The notes beneath the pieces are model-generated. The model saw only the letters and a list, made by a program, of their open reading frames with translations. It did no database searches and was not told the DNA's origin. This document shows positions 33,696-36,268 of a stretch of 64,000 nt of DNA, one piece after another. Every line of letters starts with the position of its first letter. The stretch's first letter is position 1. The stretch is from an uncultured Methanosarcinaceae archaeon (GTDB lineage Archaea; Halobacteriota; Methanosarcinia; Methanosarcinales; Methanosarcinaceae), in contig CAVSHT010000011.1 of the NCBI GenBank assembly GCA_963727895.1, positions 96,001 to 160,000 on the forward strand. The letters are read 5' to 3'. A program made the translations under genes and the position numbers.

Positions 33696-33974
33696 TTAAT
33701 AGCATCCACAGCTGCAGCTGCCCCCAGAGAAATAGGAACGGATTGTTGTTATGCAGCAAGATATTCTCACACCGCAGCCATATCCTCCACCACAGCCACA
33801 TCCTCCACCACAGCCACATCCTCCACCACAGCCACATCCTCCACCACAGCCACATCCTCCACCACAGCCACATCCTCCACCGCAGCCGCAGTCTCCACTG
33901 TAGCCGCCCCAGGTGCAGCCTCTCCCACAGCCATTAAATAGTCCATTTCCAAGTAGTCCACATCCAAAAACCAT
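33696..33974 (-). CDS. Gly/Cys-rich small protein 1 (CGCGGG repeats, 92 aa)
   Basis: GAGGT RBS, ATG, 18-bp codon repeat, C-terminal RISCCITTIR shared with paralog 2. Confidence 0.8.
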   Translation of the reverse strand: MVFGCGLLGNGLFNGCGRGCTWGGYSGDCGCGGGCGCGGGCGCGGGCGCGGGCGCGGGCGCGGGYGCGVRISCCITTIRSYFSGGSCSCGCY

Positions 33975-34944
33975 TGTATATACCTCTTATAATATAACTA
34001 TATTTTTATTTTTAGGTAGTTTTTAATATTCCGAGACATATGAGCAGATATGTTCTAATATTGAGTGATAAACCCAATCAAATATCATACCGACTCTCCA
34101 ACTCTGTTATTACTCCTGACAATTGCGTTAATCCACTTTTGATTCTATAAAAGCAGATTTAACTTTATTAGTCATAAAGTGTAATTAATAGTATAATTAT
34201 AAGATATATAAGCATTGTAGAATAATATATTCTTAATATTAAATAGTCATTGAAAAAGCTGGGAAAATCATACTCCTGGAATAGGTTAAATTTTAAGTTT
34301 AATTTACCAATTATTATTTAGTAAATATCTCTAAAAAAAGAGTTTTCAGACTATATTTAATATTCATATAACAAATAATGCTTAAATTCTAATTATATGT
34401 TTTATTTTGTATTTATTTTTTATATTAAGGGCATAAAACATATTTATTTAGAGAAAAAAAGAGTAGTACTTATTATAGTTTTAAACATTGTTACTATAAT
34501 TTATTTATTTAAAAGTTGATTAGTTATAAAGTTGAGTATTTCTTTTAAATACTGAATTTTCTATTTATCAAATTACTTTTATTATTTTATTCAATATATA
34601 AACAACAGCAAAAACAACGACTTCAAAATCAAGTATGGATAAAATTGGTACAAAAGATTCAGACTTGATTTGTTTTAATCCCCATGCAGTTGATTTTTCA
34701 ATTAAACTGCCTTAATTTTAGATGAATAAATTGATATAGGCTCATTCTTTGACCCTTTTAAAAGGATGAAGTTTTTACAGAGGAAACCTTTCAGTATCAT
34801 ACGATTCTAATACAATTAGGATTCTCTTGTTTATATATTCCGGCAAAGGTCATAAGAATGAGCCGCTCTTGGTCTTAAATTTATATACCTATCTAATATG
34901 TGGTTCGATTAGTCAGCATTTAGCTATTGGTCTAGTGACTGTTC

Positions 34945-35169
34945 TTAACAGTCGTCAAAGCCGCAGCCGTCTCCACCGAAACAGCCACGAATTGTTGTTA
35001 TGCAGCCGGATATTCTGCCTCCCCAGCCACATCCTCCGCCGCAGCCGCCAAGCCAGCCACCACCGCAGCCGCCAAGCCAGCCGCCACCGCAGCCACCGCC
35101 ACAACCACCAAATCTTCCAAATCTTCCTCTACCACCAAAACCAAATCCTAAAGGTCCTCCAAATCCCAT
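34945..35169 (-). CDS. Gly/Cys/Trp-rich small protein 2 (74 aa)
   Basis: GGAGG RBS; MGFGG...GGCGGGW repeats...RISGCITTIR. Confidence 0.8.
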   Translation of the reverse strand: MGFGGPLGFGFGGRGRFGRFGGCGGGCGGGWLGGCGGGWLGGCGGGCGWGGRISGCITTIRGCFGGDGCGFDDC

Positions 35170-35283
35170 TGTATTTTCCTCCATTTATTGTATTAATTTT
35201 TAATTTATTTTAATATTTTTTATTTACAGGAGCTAACAAAGTTTTTAACAAAGTAACAAAGTTTTAGACAATTCCAGAAAGTT

Positions 35284-35400
35284 TTAGAGTTTACAATTCC
35301 AGAAATACACTAAGGTATGCAATTCTCTAACTAAGTTTTAGAATTAGAGTTTGCAATTCTCCAGAGTATACACTAGGGTATGCAATTCTCTAACTAAGTT
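35284..35400. repeat. Imperfect ~60-bp tandem duplication in the leader of peptide gene 2
   Basis: TTAGAGTTT.CAATT...GGTATGCAATTCTCTAACTAAGTTTT occurs twice. Confidence 0.8.
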
Positions 35401-35878
35401 TTTTATCAACTCCCAAACTCCACAAGTACTTCTGACAATTGCGTTTATCTATTTTCATCTGGACAAAAACTGATTCAAGTTTAATTGCCAGAAAGTACAA
35501 TAATATAATATAATTGGAAATTATATAAACTCAATAGAATAATATGTCCTTAATATAAAATAGTCATTAAAAAACCTAGTAAACCTGCCCTGAAAAAATA
35601 AGTTTAATTTTATATTTAATTTATAACATATAATTTTATAAATATCTCGATAAAATAAGGATTCATGGTCTGAAATTAGTCTGACATTAATATATAGGAA
35701 AAATAAGACCTTTTCGGCATAGATAAGCTATATCCCCCAATTATGACCAATTTGAAGGCTCAAAAAAGATGCATCTCTAGTGAAAGAAAATAGTATTACT
35801 TATCCTGTTTTTTAACTCAGAAACTCCGGTATCTTTGTTTAAAAGTCGAGTATTTGCTCCATTCCCTATAAAAGCGAA

Positions 35879-35944
35879 TATTCAATTTAATCTATGAATA
35901 TATTCAATTTAATCTATGAATATATTCAATTTAATCTATGAATA
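35879..35944. repeat. 22-bp tandem repeat x3 (TATTCAATTTAATCTATGAATA)
   Basis: Directly visible. Confidence 0.95.
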
Positions 35945-36163
35945 TATTTGATGATTATCGATTCAATGCATTCAGATTACCCTGAATAGAAACCGTTCAC
36001 TTTCAGGTATATGTATAGTTAATAACTGCTAAGCAATAAAAATAAAATACAGAGCTATCAATTCAAAAAGACAATTTATCAGGATCTTAGTATTGAACTG
36101 ATAGCCATTCTTATTCATCAATACTCAATAGTTCTTTAACTCAGCTATGACTTGGCTATTCTT

Positions 36164-36268
36164 TTAGCACCAGCCGCCGCAGCCGCCCCAGCCGCCACAG
36201 CCGCCCCAGCGACGCCAGCCGCCACCCCAGCCGCCACAGCCGCCCCAGCCACAATTTCCAAACCACAT
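36164..36268 (-). CDS. Gly/Cys/Trp micropeptide 3 (34 aa, MWFGNCGWGGCGGWGGGWRRWGGCGGWGGCGGWC); below the ORF-track cutoff
   Basis: GGAGG RBS, ATG..TAA, same upstream motifs as paralogs 1 and 2. Confidence 0.78.
   Translation of the reverse strand: MWFGNCGWGGCGGWGGGWRRWGGCGGWGGCGGWC

Follow-up and report, generated by a model that had tools for sequence, protein, structure and literature searches.

Tandem Cassettes With Hypervariable Micropeptide ORFs Behind a Conserved Promoter Module in Methanosarcina

Three Small ORFs Rich in Glycine, Cysteine, and Tryptophan

The DNA analyzed here (64,000 nt, positions 96,001 to 160,000 of contig CAVSHT010000011.1 in assembly GCA_963727895.1; hereafter the window) belongs to an uncultured Methanosarcinaceae archaeon and contains three small open reading frames (ORFs), designated ORF1, ORF2, and ORF3, which are tandem copies of one Methanosarcina-specific cassette of about 1.1–1.2 kb. 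The preliminary description of this region reported three mini-ORFs of 92, 74, and 34 aa on one strand, GC-rich within AT-rich DNA, about 1.1–1.2 kb apart, each preceded by a ribosome-binding site and two of them sharing the motif RISxCITTIRxxFxG. All of these features were recovered, the ORFs being located on the minus strand (Table 1). The ATG-to-ATG distances are 1099 and 1195 nt, and the GC content is 0.54–0.60 over the three ORFs vs. 0.15–0.30 between them. Shine-Dalgarno (SD) sequences precede ORF1 (AGAGGT), ORF2 (GGAGG) and ORF3 (GGAGG), that of ORF1 being the weaker, and the shared motif is present in ORF1 (VRISCCITTIRSYFSGG) and ORF2 (GRISGCITTIRGCFGGD). Translation of ORF2 from its first in-frame ATG (35184) would yield 79 aa (34945–35184); because this codon overlaps GGAGG, the second ATG (35169) was taken as the likely start.

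The composition of the encoded peptides is extreme. Glycine and cysteine account for 42 and 23% of ORF1; ORF2 consists of 49% Gly, 12% Cys, 9% Phe, and 4% Trp, and ORF3 of 50% Gly, 21% Trp, and 15% Cys, compared with a genome background (frames open for at least 300 aa) of 7.1% Gly, 1.2% Cys, and 0.9% Trp. Each of the three has a net charge of +2, and Trp, Phe, and Tyr together make up 7–24%. The Gly/Cys/Trp-rich trio exceeds chance: among the 43,142 ATG-initiated ORFs of 18–130 aa in the genome, nine reach at least 40% Gly+Cys+Trp with at least three cysteines, and family members account for five of the nine. All six frames are open in the GC-rich stretches, so that openness alone proves nothing, and coding was argued in other ways.

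Organization of the Cassette

The three units align over about 1.2 kb with a mean column identity of 68%. Each comprises, in order, an AT-rich promoter module, a leader of about 160–290 nt, an exposed SD sequence 6–9 nt before the ATG, a hypervariable micropeptide ORF (15–92 aa across the family), and a structured 3' end with a T-run. A hidden Markov model (HMM) and a covariance model (CM) of the promoter module match all three window units with E-values of 1e-16 to 1e-24, and the three ORFs are probably transcribed separately. The preliminary description spoke of an uncharacterized co-regulated peptide system, which is borne out and extended by the shared promoter module and by the genus-wide cassette family described below.

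At the 3' side, the sequence TAAGAACAGT directly follows the stop codon in both units of the long peptide type in the window (ORF1 and ORF2), and the arms of a long-range stem are present in 14 of 24 long-type units. Folding of the 3' untranslated regions (3'UTRs) yielded a mean z-score of -2.80 for the long type (z < -2 in 18 of 24) and -3.42 for the short type (z < -2 in 17 of 22). The spacer between cassette 3 and the cassette 2 promoter contains a perfect 22-nt tandem repeat of 3.2 copies (35878–35948; ATATTCAATTTAATCTATGAAT on the plus strand).

Table 1. Features of the three cassettes, in window coordinates (contig coordinates of the promoter modules in parentheses).
Feature	Position	Strand	Description	Basis
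ORF1	33696..33974	-	92 aa, long type; C-terminal block VRISCCITTIRSYF	Read from sequence
ORF1 tandem repeat	33770-33898		18-nt x7.2, in-frame, encodes (CGCGGG)n	
ORF1 Shine-Dalgarno-like site	33982..33987	-	AGAGGT	Read from sequence
Cassette 1 promoter module	34143..34266	-	Degenerate TATA CTTATATATC at 34203-34212; palindrome AGAATA-TAT-TATTCT just upstream	nhmmer and CM (C11:130143-130266)
Cassette 1 3'UTR	33479..33695	-	TAAGAACAGT; stem GGCTCATTCGT (33609-33619) / ACGAATAAGCC (33493-33503; 10/11 pairs); T-run 33479-33488	
ORF2	34945..35169	-	74 aa, long G/C/W type; C-terminal block GRISGCITTIRGCF	
ORF2 tandem repeat	35039-35094		24-nt x2.3	
ORF2 Shine-Dalgarno site	35178..35182	-	GGAGG, matching the ATGGAGGTAAATAnnATG arrangement in relatives	
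Cassette 2 promoter module	35457..35585	-	TATA TTTATATAAT at 35520-35529	nhmmer and CM (C11:131457-131585)
Cassette 2 leader direct repeat	35284..35402	-	63-nt x1.9; lengthens the leader to about 285 nt	
Cassette 2 3'UTR	34725..34944	-	Post-stop TAAGAACAGT; stem GGCTCATTCTT (34854-34864) / AAGAATGAGCC (34739-34749); T-rich end	
ORF3	36164..36268	-	34 aa, short W/G/C type (MWFGNCGWGGCGGWGGGWRRWGGCGGWGGCGGWC); repeat periods 9, 18, 12, 39 nt	
ORF3 Shine-Dalgarno site	36278..36282	-	GGAGG, 9 nt upstream of ATG	
Cassette 3 promoter module	36434..36553	-	Upstream conserved element, TTATTCT, TATA TTTATATAAT at 36488-36497	nhmmer and CM (C11:132434-132553)
Cassette 3 3' end	36035..36110	-	Inverted repeat TGGCTATCA / TGATAGCTC, then T-run	

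Distribution of the Promoter Module and the Peptides

In an alignment of 26 modules, TTTATATAAT, a canonical archaeal TATA box, is invariant (26/26), while the preceding TTATTCT and GACTATTTAATATTAAGAA are nearly so. Searching for the module first, rather than for peptide composition, avoided circularity and revealed 57 modules in 29 of 30 related loci. An SD-ATG arrangement lies 150–290 nt downstream of 47 of them; four have none (two of these at locus ends), and the remaining six gave spurious early regex matches (<100 nt). Peptides with at least 48% Gly+Cys+Trp+Phe+Tyr are encoded by 46 of the 47 module-linked ORFs, and the exception (locus L023) resembles a frame-shifted copy. In three of six genomes of a neighboring genus the module is found about 45 nt before an ordinary gene, whose 497-aa product has a signal peptide and matches no Pfam family (in locus L157, 281–1774, plus strand), and hence it behaves as a promoter. 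This protein may be another member of the same regulon and could hint at the signal sensed by the promoter.

The genome to which the window belongs contains seven modules, three in the window and four elsewhere, each followed by a tiny ORF. The four cassettes outside the window encode a 41-aa W/G/C peptide, a 36-aa G/F/C peptide, a 15-aa peptide (MFGLFGGFGGCGWGC), and a 28-aa aromatic peptide with cysteines but no Gly repeats. In the fourth W/G/C cassette of the genome (C5:173827-173952, plus strand) the repeat is duplicated together with its stop codon (..GGCTGGTGCTAAGAG..GGCTGGTGCTAAGAACAG), as though repeat slippage at the ORF's 3' end had been caught in progress. The same contig carries a cluster of four radical SAM genes (C5:138663-144588), about 30 kb from this cassette and not adjacent to it.

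A set of 50 Gly/Cys/Trp-rich ORFs, selected for the presence of an SD sequence, was assembled from 23 of the 30 fetched loci; all 50 have the GGAGG(T/C)A..ATG context, having been chosen for such a site. Two types were distinguished. Short-type peptides of 28–42 aa, for example MWFGNCGWGGCGGWG..WRRW..CGGWC, include ORF3 and were represented by 16 aligned relatives. Long-type peptides of 46–92 aa begin with MGGFPFFKKF or MGGGFGLFGRGRFDG, continue with Gly/Cys/aromatic repeats and end with the block CC[IV]TA[IV]RACKIKG..GWW; ORF1 and ORF2 are divergent members. Both types occur together in 14 of the 23 loci, always on a single strand. A third kind of peptide found under the shared module in other genomes is aromatic, beta-prone, and 20–32 aa long, some examples being CGC-capped at both ends and some free of cysteine. 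Thus, the regulatory flanks are conserved, while the peptide is hypervariable and its length shifts by in-frame triplet-repeat slippage. A syntenic pair of ORFs (28 and 68 aa) with matching flanks is present in a same-genus genome, and when the whole region served as a DNA query, 51 of 59 genomes of the genus gave matches of 67–80% identity, mostly in leaders and promoters and not in the ORFs.

The covariance model of the module, which is sequence-only, was positive in 29 of the 34 same-genus genomes sampled, with 1–10 copies each, and in three of six genomes of one neighboring genus; 14 other genera of the family, represented by 110 genomes, gave no copy. A profile of the long-type peptide matched 18 of 58 same-genus genomes and none of 225 others in the order, although it is insensitive and missed the ORFs of the window itself. 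The DNA pattern for WGGCGGW was found in 12 of 59 genomes of the genus and in one of 225 others; this sole out-of-genus match (locus L055) is translated in a different frame and does not belong to the family. The long-type profile found 10 matches, all of 45–76 aa, among 1.84 billion representative proteins, and a query with one of these retrieved 16 clusters, whose names go no further than "hypothetical protein" from Methanosarcina. Relatives are present in six named genome records, five of Methanosarcina and one a metagenome-assembled genome labeled only "Methanobacteriota archaeon." Cassettes of the Gly/Cys/Trp type are carried by strains of the M. barkeri group. No relative was detected among the IMG/VR viral contigs, in which 71 single matches to the WGGCGGW DNA pattern, all in GC-rich contigs, included no cassette.

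Searches with ORF2 itself retrieved only ORF2 from its own genome, not even ORF1, nothing at E ≤ 1 among 979 candidates from 5.8 billion protein clusters, and three weak matches (E 0.07–0.24) in 177 genomes of the family. The ESM Atlas gave no usable match. Searches with these peptides are composition-biased, and absences from them are therefore weak evidence.

Reading Frame and Translation

The cassettes very probably represent a real, translated, and co-regulated family. Inside the three ORFs, each of the 11 tandem-repeat rows has a period that is a multiple of three (9, 12, 15, 18, 24, 36, and 39 nt), vs. periods of 19, 20, 63, 12, 14, and 22 nt in the spacers. The long-type members differ widely in length, yet their N- and C-terminal blocks stay in one frame, and in the non-repeat C-terminal block the alternative frames are closed by stop codons in 13 of 13 and 11 of 13 sequences. 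Comparison of the ORFs revealed arginine codons swapped between AGG/AGA and CGT/CGC with the residue retained, and one orthologous pair encodes identical peptides with three synonymous differences. When the likelihood of synonymous codons was calculated with the usage of the genome itself, the proposed frame was the best in 50 of 50 ORFs. The SD sequence is less paired in the native leaders than in shuffled ones (0.47 vs. 0.61), and a switch of the anti-SD/anti-anti-SD kind was rejected on this ground.

Alternatively, the units may not be meaningfully protein-coding, the GC-rich triplet repeats being unstable satellite-like DNA within non-coding or dual-function RNAs and the ORFs incidental. 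The flanks outdo the ORFs in conservation, the 67–80% DNA identity noted above falling mostly in leaders and promoters, and the 3'UTRs are significantly structured; dN/dS values of 0.6–0.9, six open frames in the repeats, atypical GGC usage, and the shifted frame of the L023 relative would agree with this explanation as well. It is nevertheless improbable in view of a near-perfect SD sequence that stands at the optimal distance and is kept unpaired, repeat periods that are all multiples of three, and the support of one member by ribosome profiling (Ribo-seq). Regarding conservation of the frame among homologs, on which the preliminary description made its proposal depend, the frame was retained in 46 of 47 module-selected cases despite large changes in length, with the other frames closed by stops in the non-repeat block. 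An RNA function likewise finds no counterpart in known families or in a consensus structure of the leader: RNAalifold predicted 0 pairs in two runs on the leaders, and comparison with Rfam gave no family, with one sub-threshold match (E 0.57).

Relationship to spRNA39 of Methanosarcina mazei

One relative of the cassettes is known to be expressed. In Methanosarcina mazei, according to the available part of the published data, the isoleucyl-tRNA synthetase (IleRS) gene (MM_2967) ends at 3,585,139, and the small RNA spRNA39 (3,586,527–3,586,748) is encoded on the same strand about 1.4 kb downstream (PMC11456600). This position is the same as that of ORF3 in the window. The published 3' end of spRNA39 falls at the T-run equivalent to that of cassette 3 (PMC11456600). 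It carries sORF_271, encoding 27 aa, which was rated "yes" in manual Ribo-seq curation and ranked 1557 by DeepRibo, and which was not detected by proteomics/mass spectrometry (PMC11456600). In the part of a dual RNA-seq study available to us, on M. mazei infected with the virus MetSV, spRNA39 and sRNA019 were the only host small RNAs to rise (180 vs. 0 min, log2 fold change >2.5; PMC9694453).

The connection between spRNA39 and the cassettes is provided by a locus of a same-genus genome (L075), in which the sORF_271 peptide and the surrounding DNA are located about 730 nt after an MptE-like gene. This copy is preceded by the module (E 2.4e-13), has the start context GGAGGAAAATA-AATGGGATTT as in ORF2 and ends with the same 3' inverted repeat and T-run; on these grounds spRNA39 was assigned to the cassette family. 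Like the window cassettes, spRNA39/sORF_271 follows IleRS and an MptE-like gene, shares their strand, has the module about 220 nt upstream, and specifies a tiny leaderless aromatic peptide with the shared start context, 3' inverted repeat, and T-run. It differs in that its 27 aa are aromatic, beta-prone, Cys-free and almost without Gly repeats, whereas the window peptides contain 42–50% Gly with Cys/Trp repeats.

No peptide strings of the Gly/Cys/Trp type were present in the portions of the PMC11456600 supplements considered, the remaining parts of which could contain them, and the available part of PMC12704099 mentions neither such peptides nor spRNA39. Thirteen public sequencing runs (11 recorded as RNA; nine studies) share 5–24% of the sampled words of the region (5–20% for some metatranscriptome runs), which is not evidence of expression.

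Peptide Maturation and Metal Binding

The preliminary description had noted that no maturase is nearby and that the peptides have little leader. Both observations stand: the sole YcaO gene is on another contig (C9:315027-315989), none of the 33 radical SAM matches of the genome is in the window, and the repeats begin at residues 2–8 in the short type and at about residues 15–25 in the long type. It had also likened the peptides to precursors of azole-containing peptides made by the ribosome and modified after translation (RiPPs), and this analogy fails because there is no family match (0 Pfam and NCBIfam families at E ≤ 10 for all three peptides), no adjacent YcaO or dehydrogenase, and no leader; nor was a cyclodehydratase found in 10 related 18-kb loci.

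The peptides could still be RiPP precursors (azol(in)e, thioamide, or thioether) if they were matured in trans by YcaO or radical SAM enzymes encoded elsewhere. Their Gly/Cys-rich cores resemble those of the heterocycloanthracin type, the short conserved N-terminus (MGGFPFFKKF or MGGGFGLFGRGRFDG) could serve as a recognition tag, and the genome encodes one YcaO and has 33 radical SAM matches. A methanogen radical SAM enzyme is known to cross-link a Cys-rich protein (PMC13692751, a study that left out proteins <100 aa). We nevertheless consider such maturation highly improbable. No precursor model of NCBIfam or Pfam matches the peptides, and no maturase, protease, or exporter recurs near the array, either in the window or across the 10 related 18-kb loci, in which a single non-conserved radical SAM gene was found about 6 kb from the array (locus L039). 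Moreover, the short type is devoid of any leader, and copy number and sequence vary freely, whereas a trans-acting enzyme would need conservation. The precursors of heterocycloanthracin/sonorensin and microcin B17 are likewise small ribosomal peptides with Cys/Gly-rich repetitive cores, but the window peptides have no long leader, adjacent YcaO cyclodehydratase, dehydrogenase, exporter, or model match, and their host is an archaeon. The available part of a preprint reports "nocardithiocin homologs" in 4 of 10 Methanosarcina genomes (bioRxiv 10.64898/2026.07.27.741052); these might be low-complexity matches to Cys-rich cassette ORFs.

The second comparison made in the preliminary description, with metallothioneins, is not supported either, on account of the very high aromatic content, the non-conserved Cys positions, and the Cys-free relatives of the cassette family. 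A metallothionein-like protein or thiol buffer would bind Cu(I), Zn, Cd, or Fe-S in thiolate clusters in the cytoplasm or provide redox buffering, and tandem arrays would have a dosage effect like that of amplified metallothionein loci. The small peptides contain 12–23% Cys in CxC/CxxC spacing, a content expected of metallothioneins, are predicted to be disordered without a ligand, and are encoded by tandem copies of variable number behind a strong dedicated promoter. Fungal Cu-metallothioneins are likewise Gly/Cys-rich with CxC motifs, and metallothionein genes are prone to tandem amplification. Classical metallothioneins contain few aromatic residues, whereas Trp, Phe, and Tyr make up 7–24% of the window peptides (Trp alone 21% of ORF3). 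No Pfam metallothionein model matched at E ≤ 10, and cysteines are poorly conserved, with only three invariant columns in the long-type alignment and one in the short-type alignment. Members with few or no cysteines (sORF_271 and its relatives) share the same promoter, virus infection is the one inducer known for any member, and a literature search found no papers on Methanosarcina metallothioneins. Like prokaryotic metallothioneins of the SmtA type and fungal Cu-metallothioneins, the window peptides are small and Cys-rich with CxC motifs, are predicted to be disordered without a ligand, and are encoded in tandem; they differ in high Trp/Phe, non-conserved Cys positions, Cys-free paralogs, and the lack of a model match. 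A metal- or thiol-related role is rather unlikely and, since cysteine is not common to all cassette peptides, was ranked below an effector role for the family as a whole.

Proposed Function

All cassette peptides are small, rich in aromatic residues, slightly positively charged, and devoid of a leader; cysteine is not universal. We propose that the three copies in the window would be expressed from the shared promoter as a single stress- or infection-responsive regulon. The peptides would need no dedicated maturase and would act directly as effectors, either self-associating or active at the membrane interface, that resemble toxins or defense peptides; the cysteines of the Gly/Cys/Trp versions would contribute cross-linking that depends on redox state or metals. 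The combined proposal (real cassette micro-genes, a stress/infection regulon, and effector action) is a tentative one that falls somewhat short of an even chance, and the effector mechanism specifically is possible but doubtful.

Close likenesses are also found to leaderless bacteriocins, Trp/Arg-rich or beta-hairpin antimicrobial peptides, and type I toxins, which share short length, lack of a leader, a slightly cationic character (+2 in the window peptides), and aromatic richness, some of them being Cys-bridged. Further points of likeness are the multi-copy, fast-evolving genes with conserved non-coding flanks and induction in conflict. In contrast to these systems, the window has no identified transporter, immunity gene, predicted membrane helix, or antisense RNA. 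No hydrophobic helix is evident in the window peptides, and neither a transporter nor an immunity gene was found among the neighbors in the window or in the 10 loci. Literature searches turned up no archaeal precedent. Co-folding of a short-type with a long-type peptide scored 0.00 against a mark of 0.32, which gives no verdict and is evidence neither way.

Several observations weigh against the proposal. AlphaFold2 predicted no fold for ORF2 (predicted local distance difference test 40.8), with one weak helix over the CITTIR block, and no signal peptide, transmembrane segment, transporter, or immunity gene was found, so that the usual partners of an exported antimicrobial are absent. Purifying selection is weak, with a dN/dS (NG86) of 0.62 for the C-terminal block, rising to 0.89 once the N-terminus is added. 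Glycine codons are atypical, GGC accounting for 62% in the family vs. 15% genome-wide and GGG for 1%, and this GGC bias could reflect repeat dynamics and not protein selection. The expressed member of M. mazei is aromatic and Cys-free, unlike the Gly/Cys/Trp type, and expression is known from this relative only. Its published 5' end, in the part of the record available, lies only 14 nt before the ATG and about 225 nt downstream of the module TATA box (PMC11456600); the module may therefore drive a longer precursor from which the mature RNA is cut, or it may not be the promoter of mature spRNA39. Induction by MetSV is documented in one study, at a late stage of infection, and could reflect a general response to stress. 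The defense-island context (see below) is circumstantial, and since the assembly contains broken genes, the exact repeat numbers may be erroneous.

As another possibility, the peptides may be a structural "glycine-loop" material, in which Gly-spaced aromatic residues would serve as stickers and cysteines as cross-links, forming intracellular condensates or a protective matrix during desiccation or exposure to oxygen instead of a toxin. Such a material would resemble loricrin and keratin-associated proteins. Aromatic residues and arginines are spaced by Gly runs, 12–23% of residues are Cys, the peptides are predicted to be disordered, and very strong translation signals suggest a bulk product; in other cassette peptides aromatic and polar residues alternate, a pattern typical of beta-sheet self-assembly. 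This role is quite unlikely, given that sORF_271 was unseen by mass spectrometry and thus gives no sign of abundance, that signals for export or envelope targeting are absent, and that a structural component would not usually be so variable in sequence or so patchy in copy number.

The effector proposal can be extended to an archaeal conflict system, in which a genus-wide, diversifying arsenal of leaderless micropeptides under one infection-responsive promoter would provide abortive-infection or antiviral effectors or inter-strain weapons, with slippage as the generator of diversity. In this extended form it is unlikely, though conceivable.

Members of the family are already present in databases as hypothetical proteins, and spRNA39/sORF_271 has been published as an uncharacterized translated small ORF. 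Literature searches found no description of the family, its shared promoter, its genus-wide multi-copy spread, the three kinds of peptide, or the Gly/Cys/Trp repeat versions, although supplements outside the portions covered may hold more. What is new here is the placement of spRNA39 in a multi-copy Methanosarcina cassette family that combines a conserved promoter with a hypervariable peptide. The family was overlooked in research on methanogen small proteins, being mostly unannotated or named "hypothetical protein," without a Pfam or NCBIfam model and with few tryptic sites, and the composition of the peptides makes it nearly invisible to HMM searches. It offers a tractable experimental handle, with the promoter module as bait for the regulator, one array to delete, and one inducer (MetSV infection). 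If the peptides prove to be defense, toxin, or stress effectors, this would be the first such micropeptide regulon in methanogens and an example of coding diversification by repeat slippage; if they are found to bind metals or to undergo modification in trans, no metallothionein-like proteins or RiPPs of that type, respectively, would have been known from archaea before.

Genomic Neighborhood

Of 10 fetched 18-kb loci, 7 share with the window the order IleRS, MptE-like gene, array, all encoded on one strand. What lies on the other side of the array varies; in 5 of the 10 loci it is an ATPase of the AAA_14/DUF4143 type (Pfam). The ATPase of locus L042, the only one scanned against PADLOC, matches the candidate defense family PDC-S01 (E 1.4e-75).

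The wider surroundings in the window (41024–44178, plus strand; 48980–50749 and 22703–25921, minus strand) resemble a mobile/defense island. They contain a tyrosine integrase gene adjoining a Prim-Pol gene, HEAT-repeat proteins, a NACHT/STAND fragment (PDC-S60), and a helicase of the Schlafen group that has AbiO/Nhi-like matches in PADLOC. Two fragments of the IS1 family, next to each other, lie immediately downstream of cassette 1 (32465–33147, minus strand), one InsA-like with a helix-turn-helix/zinc ribbon and the other a piece of DDE_Tnp_IS1.

Several genes of the window appear broken. IleRS is split into three ORFs of 708, 185, and 121 aa (37791–40970, minus strand), vs. a single protein of 1058 aa in relatives, and the products of pta (282 aa) and ack (362 aa; Pfam match from profile position 60), encoded at 27400–29780 on the plus strand, seem to lack part of the N-terminus. 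The cause is either decay of several genes or indel errors in the assembly. In locus L003 of a same-genus genome, a second, degenerate MptE-like frame follows the array (2470–3140), which suggests a past duplication of the IleRS-MptE border.

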